Notes: generated from the letters alone by a model not told the origin. A DNA stretch of 64,000 nt from Pseudomonadota bacterium (GCA_023457895.1 JAEXAY010000012.1:2512-66511); one strand, 5' to 3'; shown: positions 2,588 to 55,686, counted from the stretch's first letter. Translations and numbers: made by a program.

Positions 2588-3019
2588 AGCAACCTCGCAT
2601 CCTATCAGGCTCCATTGAAAGCCCGTCAACGTCTCATTCCCGGGCCTTAAATATGAACCGCAAGTGTCAAGATAGTGCAATTGGCCAAAGGCGTGAGCAG
2701 AAAAAGAGGGGGGTGAGCGATCAGCCGCGTCGTCTGGATTGCAACGGCCGCTTACGGAAGGTGGCCATTCCATCATGGTTTGACTCAACTGATAGCGAGC
2801 CGAGACCACGGGATGGAGTGGCCGTTAATTACGGCGGCCAATGCCTGAATGCCATCCGCAAATGATCAAAAGAATCATCTCTGTATTGTATCGAATGAAT
2901 ATAGCACCGGAACCAATCCGTTCAAAAGTGTTTCTGCCGGGCTTGCACCACCAGTGCACCACCAACGGCAATGATTGCCTATACGACAGGAAGCGAGATG
3001 TCTAAGTTGTTGAAAAGAT

Positions 3020-3096
3020 TGGTCGGGACGAGAGGATTCGAACCTCCGACCCCCACACCCCCAGTGTGATGCGCTACCAGGCTGCGCTACGTCCCG
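3020..3096 (-). tRNA. tRNA-Pro (anticodon GGG)
   Basis: The reverse complement reads CGGGACG-TA-GCGC-AGCCTGGTA-GCGC-A-TCACA-CTGGGGG-TGTGG-GGGTC-GGAGG-TTCGAAT-CCTCT-CGTCCCG-A-CCA. It folds as a cloverleaf with a 7-bp acceptor stem, a T-loop TTCGAAT and an encoded CCA. Confidence 0.95.
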
Positions 3097-3295
3097 ACCG
3101 GAAGGTGCGCCCATAAGCTGCCCGGCGTGTGCTGGCAAGGGGATTCTGGCATTGGGAGGCACCGCAGCCGGTGATAGAAGTTGCCACCGCCGCTCCCTTG
3201 TGATAGCCGCGCGCCACATTATTGCGGGTCAGGCCGCCCGTCCTTCGCGCCGGGCGCGGGCCGGACCCCGTCAAAAACAGAACGGACTTTAGCTT

Positions 3296-3634
3296 ATGTC
3301 GATTTTCGCGATGGCAGCGCAGGCGGCGCCTGCCGCGGCCGGGGCAGCATCTATCCCCAGTTGGGTTGGCTTTCTGCCCTATCTGCTGATTTTTGCAGTG
3401 ATGTATTTTCTCCTGATCCGGCCGCAACAGCAGAGGATGAAGGCGCATCAGCGGAAGGTGAACGCGATCGGGCGTAACGATCAGGTCGTTACCGGCGGCG
3501 GGCTTGTCGGCAAGGTGACGGCGGTTGATGAAGAATATGCGACTGTCGAGATTGCACAAGGCGTGAAGGTCAAGGTCGTCAAGGCAACGATTTCCGACGT
3601 CATTTCCAGCGCATCGGCACCCGCCAACGATTGA
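3296..3634 (+). CDS. yajC: Preprotein translocase subunit YajC
   Basis: 112 aa with a single TM helix followed by LIRPQQQRMKAHQ and GDQVVTGGGLVGKV-type motifs. Lies directly upstream of secD-secF. Confidence 0.9.
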   Translation: MSIFAMAAQAAPAAAGAASIPSWVGFLPYLLIFAVMYFLLIRPQQQRMKAHQRKVNAIGRNDQVVTGGGLVGKVTAVDEEYATVEIAQGVKVKVVKATISDVISSASAPAND

Positions 3635-6327: not shown

Positions 6328-7512
6328 TCACTCACTTTTAACGCCCGCGAGTTCGCGCCAGTGCGCGACGAGTTCGCGGGCGTTTTTCGTCCAGCTGAAA
6401 CGCGCATTTACGCTGTCCGCCACGGCTTGCGAGGCAGGCGGCCGGTTGACCAGGCGCTGAACCGCGGCTGCAACCGCTTCTGGTATGCGATCGGCGATCA
6501 CGACAGCGCTTGAGCCCGGCGCAACTTCGCGGGCGCCGCCTACATCGCTGATCACCACCGGGGTTCCGCACGCCAGCGCTTCGAGCCAAGCGTTCGCTAA
6601 GCCTTCGGATTCCGAAACCAGCACCATCGCATCGGACGCGGCGAGTAATTTGGGGATGTCCTGATGCGGCACCGACCCCAGGAAGCGTACCCGGTCGCTG
6701 ACTCCCAGTTGCGCGGCGAGCGCCTTTAGCACCGCTTCATGCGGCCCGTATCCGGCCAAGGCATAGGTCACGCCCGGCAGCGCGGGGAGGGCGCGGATCA
6801 CAATCTCCTGCCCCTTGCGCGGGATCAATGCGCCGATAGTCGACAGGAGTATCCCATCTGGAAAACCGAGCGCGGCTTTGGCGACGGCGCGGTCTTGTGG
6901 GCGGAAGCGATCCGTGTCGAGCCCGGTATAATGGATGCGGATGCGCTCTCCCGGCATGCCGAGCTCCACCATGTCGCGTTTCATCGCGCCCGATACGGCG
7001 AGCATCCCGGTCGCTTTTTGACCTGCTTCGCGCACCATCGTTGCGGTTGCCGGCTGACGGCCCCACAAGCTGATATCCGCGCCGCGCGCCTTGACCGACC
7101 AGGGAATGCCAAGCGTCTCCGCCACGCGCATGGCGGCAGGGCCATCGGGGTAGAAAAACTGCGCGTCGAGAATGTCCGGAGAAAGACCATGCCGCCGGAT
7201 CACGGACAGGATAGCGTTCGACATGGCAGTGGGAGCAAAACGGCCTCCGGTGCCCGGCCATACCCTGAAGCGCGGACGGTATACGGTGAGGTCTTTCCAT
7301 TGCTCCATAGCTGGAAGGCCGAGGAACCGCCGGTAATGCGGATGACGCGAAAGCGGCCAGAGCGGAATCCCGATGGGCGCGATCACAGTCAGGTCGATGC
7401 CCGGATCCTTAGCCGCTTCGAGCAATTGCCGTTCGACAAACACGCCGAAATTGGGCCGCGTCGCATCGGGAAACAGGCTGGCGATAGAAACGACGCGCAA
7501 GCGGGACGACAT
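6328..7512 (-). CDS. Glycosyltransferase family 4 (GT-B, group 1)
   Basis: The N-terminus is LRVVSIASLFPD. The C-terminal segment is SESEGLANAWLEALACGTPVV (E-x7-E). The start is set at ATG 7512-7510, which overlaps the stop of the upstream repressor gene (TGATG), rather than at 7551. Confidence 0.85.
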   Translation of the reverse strand: MSSRLRVVSIASLFPDATRPNFGVFVERQLLEAAKDPGIDLTVIAPIGIPLWPLSRHPHYRRFLGLPAMEQWKDLTVYRPRFRVWPGTGGRFAPTAMSNAILSVIRRHGLSPDILDAQFFYPDGPAAMRVAETLGIPWSVKARGADISLWGRQPATATMVREAGQKATGMLAVSGAMKRDMVELGMPGERIRIHYTGLDTDRFRPQDRAVAKAALGFPDGILLSTIGALIPRKGQEIVIRALPALPGVTYALAGYGPHEAVLKALAAQLGVSDRVRFLGSVPHQDIPKLLAASDAMVLVSESEGLANAWLEALACGTPVVISDVGGAREVAPGSSAVVIADRIPEAVAAAVQRLVNRPPASQAVADSVNARFSWTKNARELVAHWRELAGVKSE

Positions 7513-11501: not shown

Positions 11502-11579
11502 GGCGATCGTAGCTCAGTTGGTTAGAGCGCCGGTTTGTGGTACCGGAGGTCGCGGGTTCGGATCCCGTCGATCGCCCCA
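11502..11579 (+). tRNA. tRNA-His (anticodon GTG) with genome-encoded G-1
   Basis: G-GCGATCG-TA-GCTC-AGTTGGTTA-GAGC-G-CCGGT-TTGTGGT-ACCGG-AGGTC-GCGGG-TTCGGAT-CCCGT-CGATCGC-C-CCA. The extra 5' G pairs opposite the discriminator C73. Confidence 0.95.
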
Positions 11580-44537: not shown

Positions 44538-44882
44538 ATGCATAATGTCACCCCTTTTCCGCTCCCCGCCACAGGGCCTCGCCAGGTCGGCTTCGAGCGT
44601 GAGGAACTGATGCGCATTCTGGACCTCTATGGCCGCATGGTCGCGGCAGGCCATTGGCGCGATTATGCGATGGACTTTGAACGCGATCTCGCGGTTTTCT
44701 CCTGCTTTCGCCGCACCGCCGAACGCCCCGAATACCGCATCGAGAAACGCCCGGCTTTGCGCCAGCGGCAGGGCATGTGGGCGCTGATCGGCGAAGGCGG
44801 CGCGATACTGAAGCGCGGACATGAGCTGGCGGGCGTGCTCGCCCCGATCGAACGCAAATTGCTCAAGATCATCGAAGATTAG
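44538..44882 (+). CDS. DUF2794-like conserved alphaproteobacterial protein
   Basis: VGFEREELMRILDLYGRMVAAGHWRDYAMDF pattern. The family name is from memory. Its stop overlaps the stop of the convergent gene (TTAG at 44879-44882). Confidence 0.7.
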   Translation: MHNVTPFPLPATGPRQVGFEREELMRILDLYGRMVAAGHWRDYAMDFERDLAVFSCFRRTAERPEYRIEKRPALRQRQGMWALIGEGGAILKRGHELAGVLAPIERKLLKIIED

Positions 44883-45925
44883 GCCGCGGACCGGCTCATG
44901 CGCCACTTGGTCCACAAGTGACGCGCGAGCATCATCGGCGGCATGCGCAACAGGTGTGAGCGCAGGTAGAAAAGGAGCCGCAATATTTTGCACCTTTCCT
45001 GCCCCCAGCCATTGCGCGCGAGTAGCCGGCGTTCGACAAGCCGGATAAATATGCCGGCTTCCGGCCAGTTCTCGGGCACGGGCGTGCCATAAAGGCGCGC
45101 GGCGAGCCGGGCGGTGAGATGGAGTTCGTGCAGCAAGCCATGGTGCGCGGCGCGCCCTTCCAGTTGTCGCCACCAGCCGGGATCGGCGGCGCCCTCTTGC
45201 AGCAGGCAGTGAATGTCCCACAGGTTCCGGAGACCCCCCTGAAAGTCCCCGTCGGCCATGAAATGTGCAACCGCGTGGCAGACGCGGTCGGTCGGGGAGA
45301 GGAGGTAGAGTGTGGTGTCTTGCCCGGCCGGAACGGCATCCGCGATCATCGCTTCCGCGTCCGGCCTGGTCCGCGCCGTCAGCGGCAGGATCGTGTGATG
45401 CACGTCGATCATCCGGTCGCGATCGCGGTGGATGAGGGGTGGCAGTTCGTGCATCCATTGCCGGTAATAGTTATCGTCATACGGATCCGATTTGACCCAC
45501 TCCCATCCGGCAGTGATGAGGGCCTGTTCGGCGTCTTGGAGCCGTGCGCGCGGAACCAATATGTCGAGGTCGCCGATCTGGCGTCCTCGCGCTGCGGCGA
45601 GGTTGGCGGCGGCATAGGCTGTCCCTTTGAGCAGGATCGTGCGGATGCCCAACGGCGAGAGGGAGCGGCGGCACATTTCCGCTTCCCATAGCGCGGCGCG
45701 CTGCGCAGCGGCAGCGCCTTCGCGATGATCGGCAAGCAGCGCAGCGACCTCTGCCGGCATCGGCTGATCTCGTACCTGCTCCGCCAGCGTTCCCATCAGC
45801 GCCTCGGCGCGCGCTATCGTGATCAGCCCGGTCCAGTCAGCGACGCCCAACTGGGCGACCGTGGCGGGATCGCGCAAGGCTTGCGTCAACAGACGCGCAT
45901 CGGCGTGGTGGACCGGCGCACTCAT
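44879..45925 (-). CDS. Nucleotidyltransferase-fold protein (NTP_transf_5-like), third gene of the HPr-kinase-related cassette
   Basis: Has the polymerase-beta-type NT motif LLKGTAYAAANLAAARGRQIGDLDILV. Start ATG 45925 forms an ATGA overlap with the kinase stop. Confidence 0.8.
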   Translation of the reverse strand: MSAPVHHADARLLTQALRDPATVAQLGVADWTGLITIARAEALMGTLAEQVRDQPMPAEVAALLADHREGAAAAQRAALWEAEMCRRSLSPLGIRTILLKGTAYAAANLAAARGRQIGDLDILVPRARLQDAEQALITAGWEWVKSDPYDDNYYRQWMHELPPLIHRDRDRMIDVHHTILPLTARTRPDAEAMIADAVPAGQDTTLYLLSPTDRVCHAVAHFMADGDFQGGLRNLWDIHCLLQEGAADPGWWRQLEGRAAHHGLLHELHLTARLAARLYGTPVPENWPEAGIFIRLVERRLLARNGWGQERCKILRLLFYLRSHLLRMPPMMLARHLWTKWRMSRSAA

Positions 45926-46788
45926 GCAAGCGCACTCCATAGATGCTCGACCAGTTCCAGTGCTTCCTCGCCCGACTGGTAATCGATCGCACGCGCTGGG
46001 ACATTGGCGGCAAAGCGCGTGAGGCAGTCATAGCCAGCTTCTCCGAGTGCGACATAATTGGTCGACGCCTGCGTCAGCCTGATGAAGGTTTCCGACGGAG
46101 TCACCGGCCGTATCTCGCGGGCAAAGCCGAAGCGGGGGAACAGCAAAAGTGAAGGGCTTGCTGGTGCTTCCATGCGCGCAATGGCCTGGGCGCGCGGGCG
46201 CAGATGGCGGATATCGCCCTTGGGCGTACCCGTGAGCAAGGGGCCGAACCGCTCCGTAGGCACAAATGACGTCATGGCGGCAATCGCGTCATTCTTGAGG
46301 CTGACGGGACGGGGGAAAGCAAAAGCCTCGCCGTTCGAGGGCGCGATCAAGGTGAATTCGTCGCCCATCAGGCGCCAGCCCTTTTCGCCAAGCAGCGCAG
46401 CGAGGGTGGATTTGCCGCTGCCGCTTTCGCCCGTCATGATGAGCGCACGGCCATCCTTCTCGACTGCGCTCGCATGGAGCAGCAGATGCCGCCGCCAGCC
46501 CAGCGCCATCTGCAGGTTCATCGCCATTTCCGCCGCAAGCAGCCCCTGCGCGAGGGGCAGCGGCGCGGCATCGGGTATCATATAGTCGGCGCGAATGGTG
46601 ATCGATGGCCGGACCCACCGGCGCCAAGGCCGAAATGCTTCGAGCCGGACCGTGAAATCGTGGAAGCCTGTGGAGTTCGCGGCCGGGTAATCGCGATAGA
46701 GCGCGCGCAGCGCGGCGATCGGGCCGGGCCAGTCCGAGCCGATCCGGAAACGTGCGGGGCCGACCTTGATGCCAAACTGATGTCTCAT
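45922..46788 (-). CDS. HPr-kinase-related P-loop kinase (HprK-related kinase A type)
   Basis: LLLHASAVEKDGRALIMTGESGSGKSTLAALLGEKGWRLMGDEF mirrors the HprK C-terminal domain (H..V, P-loop, acidic pair). The P-loop lies at 46405-46431. It overlaps the upstream PqqD-like gene by ATGA. Confidence 0.85.
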   Translation of the reverse strand: MRHQFGIKVGPARFRIGSDWPGPIAALRALYRDYPAANSTGFHDFTVRLEAFRPWRRWVRPSITIRADYMIPDAAPLPLAQGLLAAEMAMNLQMALGWRRHLLLHASAVEKDGRALIMTGESGSGKSTLAALLGEKGWRLMGDEFTLIAPSNGEAFAFPRPVSLKNDAIAAMTSFVPTERFGPLLTGTPKGDIRHLRPRAQAIARMEAPASPSLLLFPRFGFAREIRPVTPSETFIRLTQASTNYVALGEAGYDCLTRFAANVPARAIDYQSGEEALELVEHLWSALA

Positions 46789-47081
46789 GCCGCGCCGTCC
46801 GGCGGGAGCCGCTCGACAAGGCCGAGTACCGCCAGTTCCTCGAGCCGCGCCATGACGCTAGCGATATGATTCTCACCTTCGGCGAGGTCGAATTTGCCTC
46901 TCAGGCGGGAGACGATAGCTTCGGGCGTAAGCACGTCTTCTCCCATCACTTCCAACATTTCCGGAACCGGCATCGCGACGAGATGCGTGGTGCCTGAGCG
47001 CCGGTCGTAAAGCGCGGAAAGCTGGTCGAGCGGGGTCAGGCGATAGCGGGCGAAAGGAAGGGCGCGATAGCGTGCGGACAT
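46785..47081 (-). CDS. PqqD-family small protein (RiPP recognition element-like peptide chaperone)
   Basis: 98 aa. The pattern ..LSALYDRRSGTTHLVAMPVPEMLEVMGEDVLTPEAIVSRLRGKF..VMARLEELAVLGLVE is a PqqD-like winged helix. Confidence 0.75.
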   Translation of the reverse strand: MSARYRALPFARYRLTPLDQLSALYDRRSGTTHLVAMPVPEMLEVMGEDVLTPEAIVSRLRGKFDLAEGENHIASVMARLEELAVLGLVERLPPDGAA

Positions 47082-47119
47082 GCTCGGTTCACGCAGGGTT
47101 GGCGGCGAGCCCGGGAAAA

Positions 47120-47545
47120 TCAGCTGCGTGGCATCTGGATCGAGGCATAGCAGGTGAAACCGCTCTGTCCCATCTGGAGGCGGCGGATATAGTTCACATA
47201 AGCCTGGCTCTGATCATAGGTCGTGCCAGGGAGCGAGCGGCCATTGATGGCGGCCTTCACATCCTGACCCTTGAATGGCTGCGGTGCGGGCGGAAAGGCC
47301 CCCTGTGTCCCGGCCGGGACCAGCGTCCCATCGGCAGCGATATATTGCCCGGCGCGCGCCGGATCAGGCACCGGGATCTCGCAGTTGAGGATCGACACGG
47401 CGGTATTGGCGAAAGCGGGCTTCACGCTCACCACCATAGAAGCCGAAACCGCGCCAAGCGCCAGCATCTGCCGCCGCGTCGGAACGGCAAGGCCATCGGC
47501 GTTCGTTGATGCTGCTTGCGGATCGCTTTCGGGATGGTCGGTCAT
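47120..47545 (-). CDS. Small Tat-signal exported protein of unknown function (141 aa), first gene of the cassette operon
   Basis: It has a 22-aa n-region, the twin-arginine motif TRRQML, the h-region ALGAVSASMVVSV and an AFA-N cleavage site. The mature part is ~93 aa with 2 Cys and ends ..QMPRS. It lies 38 nt upstream of the PqqD-like gene. Confidence 0.7.
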   Translation of the reverse strand: MTDHPESDPQAASTNADGLAVPTRRQMLALGAVSASMVVSVKPAFANTAVSILNCEIPVPDPARAGQYIAADGTLVPAGTQGAFPPAPQPFKGQDVKAAINGRSLPGTTYDQSQAYVNYIRRLQMGQSGFTCYASIQMPRS

Positions 47546-47607
47546 GCCTTCATCCTAGACCGAAAGCAGCACGACATAAAGCCGCTTTGCACGGATTTAC
47601 CGTAGCA

Positions 47608-47643
47608 GCCCGCGCCAGTCCCTGATTGGAACATGGCGCGGGC
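47608..47643 (-). other. Perfect 10-bp GC stem-loop between the porin gene and the cassette operon
   Basis: GCCCGCGCCA (47608-47617) pairs with TGGCGCGGGC (47634-47643) across a 16-nt loop. There is no U-tract on either strand. Confidence 0.6.
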
Positions 47644-47663
47644 CATGTGTAAACCGGATCTGC

Positions 47664-48893
47664 TCAATAGAAGATCTGGAAGCGGAACAGCATCGTGTCG
47701 ACATCATAGTCGCGCGTGCCATCACTCGCCGCGATGATTGCATCCTTATAGCTCAGCCGTCCGTAATTGGCGGAAAAGCGAACCTGCTCGATCGGCGTCC
47801 AGACGAGCGACCCCAATAATGCATCCTGTTTGCCGCCGCGAAAACCGCTGCTGTTGAGATCAAGATGATCATAGCGCACGTTGAGCTGGAGTGCGCCGAA
47901 TCCGCCGCTGCCCAGCGGCTTTTTGGGTTTTACGGTGCCCCAGGCACCGCCCTTGTAGGGGCGTTTGTCGTCGGTGAGGAAGAAACCGGCTTCAGCATAA
48001 CCTCCCCAGAGCGTGGGATTGGCCATATTGGGCACGTCAGGGCGGAGCCAGAAAGCCTCACCGGTAGCGTGAAAGCGCCCCATCACAGCGCCCGCTTCAA
48101 GTCCGTAACCCAGTTCCTTTTCAACCCGGAGCGAGGGCGTCGAAACAAAGCGGGTGTCGGTTGTCCGCAGGACTGGACGAGTTCGATAGCGCATGCCGCT
48201 ATTGGCAAGATCGTTGCGGTCGCGCCAATGCGCGGAAGCCGCCAGATGCAATTGGGTGTCGCCCATCTTGGGTGCCCACACCGCGCGGCCATGAACGCCA
48301 AGGCTGTTGTCCTTGACGTCGTTTAACCCGATCAGCGGCTCGGTCGAAACCCCGCCCTGAAACATCAGATCGCCCTGCTTCAGCGTCGAGGTCAGTGCAA
48401 GGCGGCGAGTAAAACCGAATGCCTGCACGAAGCCCGCGCGCTCGGCAAAGCTGGTATTGAGATCGCTCGTCAAGTCGTCAAGCGACTGGAACACCTTTTG
48501 CTGGCCCGCGGTAATGTTTAGATTCTTGGTGTCATAGGCGACATAGGCGTCGACGAATTCGGGGTCCGAGGTAGCCATGTCGCCCTCGACGCGGGCGCTC
48601 CAGCCGCCGCCAAACTTCGCATCGACCCCGATATAGGCTCGGCGCAATATGTCGTTCCAGCCCATGCCTCCGGCGGTGACATTATCCGGCGGTGAAACCT
48701 TGCCGACATCATATTGGACACGCCAGCGCGGGCGCAGTTCGAACCCGTCCTTTTCGGACTTGGCAGTTTTTTGGGCTGCGGCATCCTCTACCGGTGTAGG
48801 CGTATCAGGAGCGGCGGTACTGGCAGCGGGTGTCGCATGAGCCGTAGCGGGGAGCAGAGCAAGGACGGCGGCTGCGTGGACAAGGCGGGTCAT
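47664..48893 (-). CDS. OprO/OprP-type (phosphate-selective-like) porin
   Basis: Has a signal peptide, RPRWRVQYD and AYIGVDAKFGGGW segments, and a C-terminal FRFQIFY aromatic end typical of outer-membrane beta-barrels. Confidence 0.8.
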   Translation of the reverse strand: MTRLVHAAAVLALLPATAHATPAASTAAPDTPTPVEDAAAQKTAKSEKDGFELRPRWRVQYDVGKVSPPDNVTAGGMGWNDILRRAYIGVDAKFGGGWSARVEGDMATSDPEFVDAYVAYDTKNLNITAGQQKVFQSLDDLTSDLNTSFAERAGFVQAFGFTRRLALTSTLKQGDLMFQGGVSTEPLIGLNDVKDNSLGVHGRAVWAPKMGDTQLHLAASAHWRDRNDLANSGMRYRTRPVLRTTDTRFVSTPSLRVEKELGYGLEAGAVMGRFHATGEAFWLRPDVPNMANPTLWGGYAEAGFFLTDDKRPYKGGAWGTVKPKKPLGSGGFGALQLNVRYDHLDLNSSGFRGGKQDALLGSLVWTPIEQVRFSANYGRLSYKDAIIAASDGTRDYDVDTMLFRFQIFY

Positions 48894-53862: not shown

Positions 53863-55686
53863 ATGTGCGGTATTATCGGTATCATCGGCAACGCGGAAGT
53901 TGCGGACAGCCTTGTCGATGGTTTGCGGCGGCTGGAGTATCGCGGTTATGACAGTGCAGGTGTCGCGACTATCCATGATGGTCAGCTTGATCGCCGCCGC
54001 GCGGAAGGGAAACTCAACAATCTCGCCAAAGTGCTGGCCGACCAGCCGCTCCCCGGCAGTATCGGGATCGCGCATACCCGTTGGGCTACCCACGGCGCGC
54101 CGACGACGAGCAACGCCCACCCCCATGCGACCGATCATGTCGCGCTCGTCCACAACGGCATCATCGAAAATTTCAAGGAATTGCGTGACGAACTGCAGGG
54201 CAGGGGCCGGACCTTCACCTCCGATACGGACACCGAGGTGGTGGCGCATCTGGTAAGCGAGGAAATTGAGGCGGGCAAGTCGCCCGAGGAAGCAGTCAAG
54301 GCCGTGCTGCCGCGGCTGCGGGGCGCGTTCGCGCTGGCCATCCTGTTCAAGGATCATGCCGATAAGCTGATCGGCGCACGGCTCGGCTCACCGCTCGTGG
54401 TGGGCTATGGCGATGATGAGAATTACCTTGGCTCCGATGCGCTCGCGCTGGCGCCCCTGACGCAGCGGATCGCTTATCTCGACGAGGGCGACTGGGTCGT
54501 GGTGACGCGCGAGGGCACGCAGATTTACGACAAGGACAACCACCCGGTCACGCGCGAGATCGTGACCTCGGGGGTGTCGGCGGCGGCGGTCGAGAAGGGC
54601 AATTACCGTCATTACATGCAGAAGGAAATCTTCGAGCAGCCGACCGTCGTGGCGCAGACATTGCGCAGCTATATTCGGCCGGTCGAGCAGCAGGTGGCGT
54701 TGCCGCAGATGGATTTCGACCTGTCGGCAATCCGCCGCATCACCATCGTTGCCTGCGGGACCAGCTATTATGCCGGGATGGTCGCCAAATACTGGTTCGA
54801 GCAATTCGCGCGCGTGCCGGTCGATATCGATGTCGCTTCCGAATTCCGGTACCGCGAGCCGGTGATGGAAGAGGGCGGCCTTGCGCTGTTCATCTCGCAA
54901 TCGGGTGAAACCGCCGATACGCTTGCGGCGCTGCGCCACGCGCGCGCCGAAGGACAGAAGATCGCGGTCGTCGTCAACGTGCCGACCTCGTCGATGGCGC
55001 GCGAGGCGGACCTGTTGCTTCCGACCCATGCCGGCCCGGAAATCGGCGTCGCCTCGACCAAGGCGTTTTCGTGCCAACTCGCGGTGCTGGCCGCGCTGGC
55101 GGCGCATCTTGCCGTGGTCAAGGGCCGCATCACCCGGGCGGAAGAGCAGGATGTGGTCGCTCATCTCACCGAAACTCCCGCCGCGCTCAATGCCGCGCTG
55201 GCGCACGACGGCGAGATCGAGAAGATGGCGCCGCTCATTGCACCCGCACGTGACGTGCTCTATCTCGGGCGTGGGCCGGACTATCCGCTGGCGCTGGAAG
55301 GCGCGCTCAAGCTCAAGGAAATCAGTTATATCCACGCCGAAGGTTATGCGGCGGGCGAGATGAAACATGGCCCGATCGCGTTGATCGACGAAAATGTGCC
55401 CGTGATCGTGCTCGCGCCTTCCGGCCCGTTGTTCGAAAAAACTGTCAGCAACATGCAGGAAGTGCGCGCGCGTGGCGGCAAGATCGTACTGATTTCTGAT
55501 GCCGAGGGGCTGAAGGAAGCGGGCGAAGGGTGCCTCGCCACGATCGAAATGCCGCAGGTCCATCCGTTGATTGCGCCGCTGGTCTATGCCGTGCCGGTCC
55601 AGCTCCTCGCATATCATGTGGCGGTGGCCAAGGGTACCGACGTCGACCAGCCGCGCAATCTTGCCAAAAGCGTTACGGTGGAATAG
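53863..55686 (+). CDS. glmS: Glutamine--fructose-6-phosphate aminotransferase
   Basis: Has the MCGIIG Ntn-Cys start, two SIS domains and the C-terminus KSVTVE. Confidence 0.97.
   Translation: MCGIIGIIGNAEVADSLVDGLRRLEYRGYDSAGVATIHDGQLDRRRAEGKLNNLAKVLADQPLPGSIGIAHTRWATHGAPTTSNAHPHATDHVALVHNGIIENFKELRDELQGRGRTFTSDTDTEVVAHLVSEEIEAGKSPEEAVKAVLPRLRGAFALAILFKDHADKLIGARLGSPLVVGYGDDENYLGSDALALAPLTQRIAYLDEGDWVVVTREGTQIYDKDNHPVTREIVTSGVSAAAVEKGNYRHYMQKEIFEQPTVVAQTLRSYIRPVEQQVALPQMDFDLSAIRRITIVACGTSYYAGMVAKYWFEQFARVPVDIDVASEFRYREPVMEEGGLALFISQSGETADTLAALRHARAEGQKIAVVVNVPTSSMAREADLLLPTHAGPEIGVASTKAFSCQLAVLAALAAHLAVVKGRITRAEEQDVVAHLTETPAALNAALAHDGEIEKMAPLIAPARDVLYLGRGPDYPLALEGALKLKEISYIHAEGYAAGEMKHGPIALIDENVPVIVLAPSGPLFEKTVSNMQEVRARGGKIVLISDAEGLKEAGEGCLATIEMPQVHPLIAPLVYAVPVQLLAYHVAVAKGTDVDQPRNLAKSVTVE

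Follow-up and report, generated by a model that had tools for sequence, protein, structure and literature searches.

A conserved four-gene HPr-rel-A cassette and its putative twin-arginine precursor in a Pseudomonadota bacterium

The four genes of the cassette and their products

We describe here a cassette of four genes carried by a stretch of 64,000 nucleotides (called the window below) from a Pseudomonadota bacterium (GCA_023457895.1 JAEXAY010000012.1:2512-66511). The four genes are all located on the minus strand, where they span positions 47545 to 44879 according to the open reading frames (ORFs) called from the window sequence. From the first to the last, they encode a small protein with a signal of the twin-arginine (Tat) type, a PqqD-like protein, an HprK-related kinase and a nucleotidyltransferase (NTase), these last three being referred to as the trio. 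Two members of the trio are the markers of the HPr-rel-A system, which, as defined in NCBIfam, consists of two proteins only and has no named substrate. An earlier note on this DNA had presented the locus as an "orphan" system lacking a cyclase, a protease and an exporter, with the small protein as one of the four products; our comparison of loci suggests that this small protein is the cognate precursor of the trio. The features of the locus are as follows:

47546-47663, minus strand: upstream intergenic region, likely the promoter region of the cassette (presumed from the strand reading)
47120-47545, minus strand: gene of the small protein or putative precursor (ORF of 141 aa)
47408-47545, minus strand: leader region of the putative precursor, residues 1-46 (direct sequence reading)
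47082-47119, minus strand: spacer of 38 nt between the precursor gene and the PqqD-like gene
46785-47081, minus strand: gene of the PqqD-like protein (98 aa)
45922-46788, minus strand: gene of the HprK-related kinase A (288 aa)
44879-45925, minus strand: gene of the NTP_transf_5 NTase (348 aa from the ATG within ATGA)

Coordinates and strand reading agree with the tight packing described in the earlier note, i.e., four same-strand genes with a 38-nt gap and then two ATGA stop/start overlaps, one between the PqqD-like and kinase genes (46785-46788) and the other between the kinase and NTase genes (45922-45925). The longest possible NTase ORF begins at 45940. The motifs that had been quoted for the small protein (PTRRQML...KPAFA), the kinase (LLHASAV...GESGSGKST...MGDEF) and the NTase (GRQIGDLDILV) are likewise all present in the translations.

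Searches with hidden Markov models (HMMs) bear out the proposed membership of the HPr-rel-A system and of the NTase family, the three models concerned all being matched above their cut-offs. The kinase matches HprK_rel_A (TIGR04352) with 236.3 bits for a cut-off of 200, over profile positions 3-280 of 280; the PqqD-like protein matches PqqD_rel_X (TIGR04353), the "HPr-rel-A system PqqD family peptide chaperone" of NCBIfam, with 51 bits for a cut-off of 35; and the NTase matches NTP_transf_5 (PF14907) with 181 bits for a cut-off of 31.2, over profile positions 3-249 of 249. With its two marker proteins above cut-off, adjacent and ATGA-overlapped, the locus belongs to the HPr-rel-A system. The Tat-type precursor lies outside all NCBIfam and Pfam models, and neither the NTP_transf_5 partner nor the XrtA/PEP-CTERM context described below figures in the model names. 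In line with the earlier note, which knew of no substrate or function shown for the system, our literature searches found no publication on it, and they also returned nothing relevant on its substrate, on a PqqD-type recognition element reading a Tat signal, on an HPr kinase together with PEP-CTERM, or on PF14907.

In alignments of diverse homologues, the invariant residues of the kinase are H105, G123-x-G125-K-S-T128 and D143-E144, which align with the His, the P-loop and the acidic pair of HprK. Its AlphaFold2 (AF2) model (pLDDT 95) was compared to the PDB with Foldseek and matches phosphoenolpyruvate carboxykinase (PEPCK; E 1e-7, TMq 0.54) and HprK/P (E 2e-4, probability 1.0). The whole 288-aa model, including its N-terminal domain, resembles the two-domain ATP-dependent PEPCK (TMq ~0.54) more than HprK/P (~0.27), which matches the C-terminal half only. 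As judged from this model, the kinase is a P-loop phosphotransferase of the known PEPCK/HprK fold. It shares with HprK/P the P-loop GxSGxGKS, the preceding His, the following acidic pair and the fold, whereas the N-terminal domain differs and no HPr or phosphotransferase system genes lie near the cassette. We rejected the possibility of an HPr kinase/phosphorylase proper because TIGR00679 gives only 22.4 bits for a cut-off of 240 and the sequence alignment is limited to the P-loop region. The closest homologues (65-74% identity) are found in Sphingomonadales (Sphingorhabdus, Sphingobium, Sphingomonas). The family is large: over 5,000 clusters at 90% identity came out of the kinase search, while an exhaustive search among 50%-identity representatives gave 259 clusters at E <= 1e-30.

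The PqqD-like protein resembles the recognition elements of peptides that are made by ribosomes and modified after translation (RiPPs). A profile of 50 cassette homologues matches TfuB1 nearly over its full length (6jx3_B, E 2.4e-4) and TbiB1 (5v1u, E 0.012) in the PDB; such B1 proteins of lasso-peptide clusters are its closest solved relatives. Pfam PqqD (PF05402) is also matched by 27 of the 50 homologues. Because of these matches, we assign the cassette PqqD-like protein, by sequence comparison, to the RiPP recognition elements (RREs). As for the NTase, the motif G-x-x-I-G-D-L-D-I-L-V is kept in its relatives, which identifies it at the level of motifs as a pol-beta-type nucleotidyltransferase with a predicted catalytic GD-x-D motif.

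The product of the first gene and its relatives match no NCBIfam or Pfam family. These relatives form 1738 clusters, every one named "hypothetical" and without Pfam domain. In the leader of the window protein, the motif T23-R24-R25-Q-M-L is followed by an h-region of weak hydrophobicity, then by a c-region of basic character (V-K-P) and by a predicted signal-peptidase site, A44-F-A46. The leader precedes a mature part of ~95 aa with two invariant cysteines, C55 and C132. The invariant columns of the alignment are R25, L28, G31, A32, P43, A44, A46, S51 and C55. Among them, S51 sits four residues ahead of C55, both being past the predicted cleavage site, and other invariant hydroxyl residues (S128, T131 and S135) flank C132. 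The window protein ends with ...MPRS and its sphingomonad homologues with PR, PRG, PRS, PRA or PGR. In the AF2 model, the mature part has a pLDDT of 82-91 and the leader is disordered; Foldseek found no match to a PDB structure at E <= 0.001 for this model.

Conservation of the gene set and of its twin-arginine leader

Relatives of the cassette were collected from 80 Sphingomonadales genomes, fetched with their flanks, and from more distant loci. The genome scan gave only Sphingomonadales, and the distant loci come from profile hits, cluster look-ups and a metagenome scan (80 loci); the genome and metagenome scans each represent the best 80 hits, and the sampling of clades is uneven. In the Sphingomonadales, the order small protein/PqqD-like protein/kinase/NTase is near-invariant and the genes are overall 32-73% identical. 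A homologue of the small protein is present in 74 of these 80 loci, with 47-73% identity, i.e., it is as conserved as the kinase and better conserved than the PqqD-like protein (32-53%). In about 68 of the 80 loci, its gene immediately precedes the PqqD gene, and in six Sphingobium loci it is found ~1.4 kb further upstream. Distant members (Massilia, Thiobacillus and unclassified Pseudomonadota), whose kinases are 33-39% identical to that of the window, present the same four-gene layout. The four-gene arrangement, which recurs in the 80 Sphingomonadales genomes and in distant lineages, is not a chance one; within Sphingomonadales, the cassette appears to be nearly a core set of genes.

The junctions between the genes are informative too. 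Of 154 loci, 96 have an overlap of exactly 4 nt between the PqqD stop and the kinase start, and 35 more have one of 1-13 nt; this retention in most of the loci argues for translational coupling. Upstream, the median distance across loci between the precursor stop and the start of the PqqD HMM envelope is ~16 nt. Natural fusions also exist. Four representative clusters of ~690-720 aa (P0167, P0175, P0190 and P0230) join a kinase in their N-terminal half to an NTP_transf_5 domain in their C-terminal half, one such fusion being seen in its genomic context (L089). In four others (P0156, P0417, P0418 and P0268), the kinase is preceded by an N-terminal domain that matches the cassette PqqD-like HMM (E 1e-10 to 1e-7). 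Such fusions at both junctions are good evidence, as far as protein sequences can tell, for a single PqqD-like/kinase/NTase complex.

The earlier note had suggested comparing gene neighbourhoods in search of a fourth gene that co-varies with the trio. This comparison singles out the small protein: across classes of Proteobacteria, no partner of the trio is more conserved or more specific than its leader. In distant loci, the BLAST similarity between the first gene product and the sphingomonad small protein is limited to the N-terminus, which is again a twin-arginine signal. We built a leader HMM from 20 leaders, in replacement of a crude regular expression (RR plus hydrophobic stretch) that was too permissive (1412 background hits), and scored it on 40,344 six-frame ORFs from all loci and the window. 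As the HMM was trained on some of the loci that were also scored, the informative part of its results is the specificity, not the sensitivity. In the window, its single match is the small protein (34 bits, E 3e-8). At E < 0.03, nearly all matches correspond to a same-strand ORF ending just upstream of the PqqD-like gene, the others being extra precursor copies in two loci (two in L165, one in L169) and one weak match in L007 (E 0.02). Among the 68 non-sphingomonad loci with at least 750 nt of upstream sequence, 60 are positive directly upstream of the PqqD gene, and several of the eight negative ones carry divergent RR leaders, as judged by eye. Ordinary Tat-type signals of the same loci, e.g., MTFRISRRRLLGGAAAFTAIPYSAFAAAQ, are not scored by this HMM, and we consider for this reason that the leader represents a distinct Tat-signal subtype.

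The extra copies differ in their location. In L165, two tandem leader-bearing paralogues of the precursor directly follow the kinase gene (L165:2059-2721 and 2769-3407), and in L169 the second leader-bearing copy is found downstream of the NTase gene (L169:8071-8673).

The leader profile can be written [S/G/A]-R-R-R-[L/F]-x-[K/R]-x-G-..-A-P-V-[I/L]-L-T-L-x-S-[R]-P-x-x-A, with S/G/A at position -1, RR in 100% of the leaders, L/F at +3 in 84% and K/R at +5 in 61%. The h-region is weak, R is common in the c-region, and the cleavage site is AxA-like with A at its position -1. In its sequence, this profile fits the Tat consensus S-R-R-x-F-L-K. The leader is common to the sphingomonad lineage of the window and to distant lineages (Massilia, Thiobacillus, metagenomes), whereas the cargo that follows it varies from ~17 to ~266 residues and is not alignable between clades: it is of ~17-38 residues in L121, L090, L104 and L089, of ~95 residues in sphingomonads, and of 130-266 residues elsewhere. 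Near the cleavage site, the first Cys lies 25-31 residues after the RR in 55 of 63 distinct leaders; in the sphingomonad leaders this distance is 30-32 residues, with a single exception. Over the 16 residues beginning with this first Cys, Ser accounts for 20.6%, and the sequence is often C-x-x-P-S-G-x-x-S-G-N-x-S. One Thiobacillus-type precursor (L086:8966-9727) carries a long low-complexity insert, (Ser-Asn)n, in the middle of its cargo; the protein of L087, otherwise 65-73% identical, lacks this insert.

Genomic neighbourhoods of the cassette

The neighbours of the cassette were surveyed by clustering and NCBIfam scans in the 23 non-sphingomonad loci of at least 9 kb. Genes of the XrtA/PEP-CTERM system are recurrent there. 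Indeed, the XrtA-system chain-length determinant is found in 9 of the 23 loci, the XrtA/PEP-CTERM export protein in 8 and the XrtA-associated tyrosine autokinase in 7; a trypsin-like serine protease is found in 10, and the survey also contains six genes for the flocculation-associated PEP-CTERM protein PepA and four for the PEP-CTERM/XrtA glycosyltransferase. XrtA-system markers are thus near the cassette in 7-10 of these 23 long loci (about 40%). Loci in which the cassette lies in or next to an XrtA/PEP-CTERM locus are L085:1-9000, L088:1035-5327, L096, L125-L127, L130, L138, L158 and L167. Loci of this type also include a TIGR03016 outer-membrane protein, and in L088 the cassette adjoins exosortase A and the XrtA amidotransferase. 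In non-sphingomonads, the cassette is therefore often a module of XrtA/PEP-CTERM exopolysaccharide loci. In the window, no XrtA/PEP-CTERM marker genes were found.

In sphingomonads, the variations concern the first gene. The six Sphingobium loci in which the precursor gene is ~1.4 kb away are L030, L071, L051, L064, L078 and L081. In the two that were inspected, the gap holds a same-strand gene for a glycosyltransferase of family GT4 of ~390 aa, with Glycos_transf_1 and Glyco_transf_4 domains (L030:8476-9660 and L071:8489-9649); this position between the precursor and PqqD genes is a hint of a link with glycans. In the Sphingopyxis-like loci L025, L031, L047, L056 and L077, no precursor is found upstream of the trio, where there are a MarR-family gene and a long ORF that has the appearance of a TonB-dependent receptor. 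A precursor homologue from a Sphingopyxis metagenome-assembled genome (P0519, L170:6001-6414) belongs to an unrelated locus, where its neighbours are a histidine kinase and an FAA hydrolase. In L056, from one Sphingomonadales metagenome-assembled genome, the cassette is split by an ORF of ~390 aa recognized by eye as transposase-like (L056:10876-12048), which separates the kinase and NTase genes and lies on the opposite strand.

Homologous trios do not sit in lasso-peptide clusters, as we observed among the neighbours of the 80 Sphingomonadales loci and the 23 long loci, and lasso genes were seen in none of about 165 related loci. The earlier note had listed lasso components missing from the window. 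The absence of the cyclase stands, since the sole Asn-synthase-like match obtained by tblastn in the window is glmS (53863-55683); the B2 protease and the ABC exporter were not recognized in the ORFs flanking the cassette or in the top neighbour families, no B2-specific model having been run window-wide. Nor is a lasso cyclase among the 25 commonest neighbour families of the 23 long loci; a single Asn-synthase-like neighbour, that of L088, was checked individually, and it corresponds to the XrtA amidotransferase TIGR03108 (1014 bits for a cut-off of 817).

Immediately upstream of the cassette, the intergenic region (47546-47663) contains an inverted repeat with a perfect 10-bp stem (47634-47643 and 47608-47617, gcccgcgcca/tggcgcgggc) and a 16-nt loop. 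It is located 20 nt past the porin stop codon and ~60 nt ahead of the precursor start, and has no T-run. This hairpin (47608-47643) may be a terminator or a processing hairpin between the porin gene and the cassette. A consensus scan of 47546-47663 revealed neither a sigma-70-like promoter nor a T-run terminator, the matches not being above shuffled expectation, and no Rfam match indicates a regulatory RNA upstream of the cassette or in the 38-nt spacer. The Rfam matches of the 64-kb window are two tRNA genes only (3023-3096, minus strand; 11503-11576, plus strand). Base composition is uniform along the window and thus does not suggest a recent insertion.

Further genes around the cassette were considered as partners. 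The porin (47664-48893) was rejected as a fifth member since it adjoins the cassette only in a few Sphingorhabdus-like loci. We also rejected DUF2794/cysE and glmU/glmS as functional partners: their synteny is at the level of the order only, and in the window they are not found on the same side of the cassette as in relatives. Indeed, glmU usually comes after the cassette in Sphingomonadales loci, and DUF2794, cysE and a LysR gene are on the opposite side of the cassette in relatives as compared with the window, which points to a local rearrangement in the genome of the window. The DUF2794 gene of the window (44538-44882, plus strand) is convergent with the NTase gene, with a tail-to-tail overlap of 4 nt (44879-44882). 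Far from the cassette, the protein encoded at 6343-7497 (minus strand) is 24-32% identical, by tblastn, to four neighbour ORFs of a metagenome locus (L129).

A proposed modification pathway ahead of Tat export

Since a conserved leader, borne by a hypervariable cargo, adjoins an RRE that is fused or coupled to two transferases, we interpret the cassette as an RRE-guided modification system. The small protein is likely the cognate precursor and substrate of the trio, as suggested by the sequence comparisons, and the system is probably complete, not orphan. Our favoured reading, to which we give a probability of about 0.55, is that the locus is a complete four-component HPr-rel-A system, whose first gene would encode the substrate, modified by way of its leader and then exported by the Tat pathway.

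From the gene order, the family memberships, the conserved and specific leader, the fusions and the folds described above, we infer a pathway in which leader binding, modified residue, chemistry, Tat dependence and biological role would be as follows. The 141-aa precursor would be made in the cytoplasm, with an N-terminus corresponding to a special, conserved subtype of twin-arginine signal peptide. The PqqD-like RRE would bind this leader, likely at the segment APV(I/L)LTL.S.P taken up as an added beta-strand, in the manner of lasso B1 proteins. The bound precursor would thereby be held for the kinase and the NTase, both complexed with the PqqD-like chaperone. The HprK-like kinase would phosphorylate a hydroxyl of the cargo, for which S51 and S128/T131/S135 are candidates, and the NTP_transf_5 enzyme would then extend or cap this phosphate with a nucleotidyl or glycosyl(-phospho) group, a step for which PsmK/PsmN of pseudomycoidin may be a precedent. 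The Tat pathway, unlike Sec, transports folded or bulky cargo. The modified and possibly folded protein would be exported by the housekeeping Tat machinery and cut by signal peptidase I after A-F-A46. The resulting mature protein of ~95 residues, with a probable C55-C132 disulfide, would act in the periplasm or the envelope; in other lineages, its role is probably connected with the exopolysaccharide or floc matrix. The lack of a recognized dedicated protease or exporter would be explained if housekeeping Tat and signal peptidase I supplied both functions.

Two known types of RiPP systems can be compared with this proposal. The tailoring enzymes of lasso peptides (PadeK/ThcoK for paeninodin, and those of pseudomycoidin) belong to the same three families as the trio, i.e., a PqqD-like RRE (B1), an HprK-like kinase and an NTP_transf_5-type NTase. 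The kinase and NTase of pseudomycoidin are reportedly named PsmK and PsmN in the original paper. The cassette differs from lasso clusters by its twin-arginine precursor, by its cargo of 17-266 aa and by a kinase forming a separate equivalog family. In lasso clusters, HprK-family kinases place a phosphate on a Ser of the linear precursor, and in the case of pseudomycoidin the phosphorylated peptide then receives one or two hexoses from the NTase of the cluster (review PMC8498205). Bufferins, in turn, are RiPPs exported through a Sec signal peptide (PMC11626156). Together with other MNIO-modified RiPPs (BufA/BufB/BufC), they resemble the cassette by their small Cys-containing precursors, their RRE-containing partner and their cytoplasmic modification, and also by the use of general secretion and signal-peptidase cleavage with no dedicated protease or exporter (PMC11626156, PMC12710340), features which, on the side of the cassette, are those that we propose. 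In contrast, their Sec signal has no conserved motif and their enzyme is an iron oxidase making thiooxazoles, whereas the cassette associates a conserved Tat-type signal with a kinase and an NTase.

Several observations weigh against the Tat-exported substrate. The precursor gene is unlinked from the trio in Sphingopyxis, so that adjacency is not obligatory. The signal peptide of bufferins is dispensable for modification (PMC11626156), and for this reason a conserved signal peptide does not have to serve for recognition; conservation of the leader could have some other cause, e.g., a dedicated targeting or anchoring step. The curated Tat-signal models (PF10518 and TIGR02811-type) stay below threshold on these leaders, with 13.3 bits for a cut-off of 22.7 and 15 for 48 in two relatives, and no match for the window protein. 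The conserved C-terminal Ser that is the hallmark of lasso-kinase substrates is absent, the C-termini of other clades being unrelated. Concerning the enzymes, the window PqqD-like protein itself is below the Pfam PqqD threshold, a PDB sequence search found no solved relative of the NTase, and the literature searches found no biochemical data on any member of the HPr-rel-A system.

Some of these points would be expected if the trio modified something else, such as an unannotated short peptide or an envelope or exopolysaccharide precursor, the Tat-exported protein then being a periplasmic partner, e.g., a binding or receptor protein for the product. The unlinked gene in Sphingopyxis and the lack of a conserved C-terminal Ser of the lasso-kinase type fit with this, as do the many relatives located in XrtA/PEP-CTERM polysaccharide loci and the sphingomonad copies that adjoin glmU/glmS. 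We nevertheless regard another substrate as unlikely, since an RRE implies a peptide leader, and the N-terminus of the small protein is the only conserved leader-like sequence near the trio. Moreover, a cargo that varies freely behind a kept leader is the pattern of a recognized substrate, not of a fixed partner, and no other conserved small ORF was evident upstream of the kinase in the ORF listings, in which the conservation of short ORFs was not systematically tested.

The leader also raises the question of Tat proofreading. TorD, DmsD and NapD are chaperones that bind Tat signal peptides and serve cofactor insertion into redox enzymes. By analogy, the trio could be an escort that times export, with no stable modification of the cargo (the modification being transient or borne by the signal peptide). 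Such binders of signal peptides are well established, the conserved part of the small protein is precisely its signal peptide, and the cargo is highly variable. The likeness holds for a cytoplasmic protein encoded beside a Tat substrate and proposed to bind its signal before export, but the folds are unrelated, and the putative binder of the cassette, an RRE of the PqqD winged-helix type, is coupled with two transferases. Neither enzyme shows variation in its catalytic residues (P-loop, His and D-E for the kinase, GD-x-D for the NTase), their relatives in lasso clusters leave stable phospho or phospho-glycosyl modifications, and, shortly after the cleavage site, the cargo displays a Ser-rich motif and a Cys whose spacing is fixed, all of which makes a pure escort function improbable in our opinion. 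As for a decayed paeninodin-type lasso cluster that would have lost its cyclase, B2 protease and exporter and have no function of its own, it is suggested by the fact that the three families of the trio also serve as lasso tailoring genes. We rejected it as most improbable: the four genes are intact and strongly conserved, in the 80 Sphingomonadales genomes and in distant lineages, no lasso cyclase was seen in the window or among the neighbours of the 23 long loci, and the kinase forms its own equivalog family.

Coming back to the leader-guided modification and Tat export of the small protein, the elements that appear to be new, on a reading of the sequences, are the precursor family and its Tat-leader logic. 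More tentatively, at somewhat less than even odds, we propose that this may be the first RiPP-like or protein-modifying pathway in which a PqqD-type element reads a twin-arginine signal as a leader; a dedicated subclass of Tat substrates, of 17 to ~270 residues, would be phosphorylated and then nucleotidylated or phospho-glycosylated before export, and would serve, either as components or as regulators, in the XrtA/PEP-CTERM floc matrix of many Betaproteobacteria.

The HPr-rel-A system is widespread and has a curated name, and since the putative precursor family has a diagnostic leader, the question of the system's substrate becomes directly testable. If our reading is true, the leader HMM would constitute a genome-mining handle for an unannotated protein family, and the binders of Tat signal peptides would gain a new class. 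The RiPPs that borrow general secretion signals would then extend from the Sec and lipoprotein pathways to Tat, and the XrtA/PEP-CTERM loci of floc formation, which are of importance in wastewater microbiology, would be connected with a post-translational modification.

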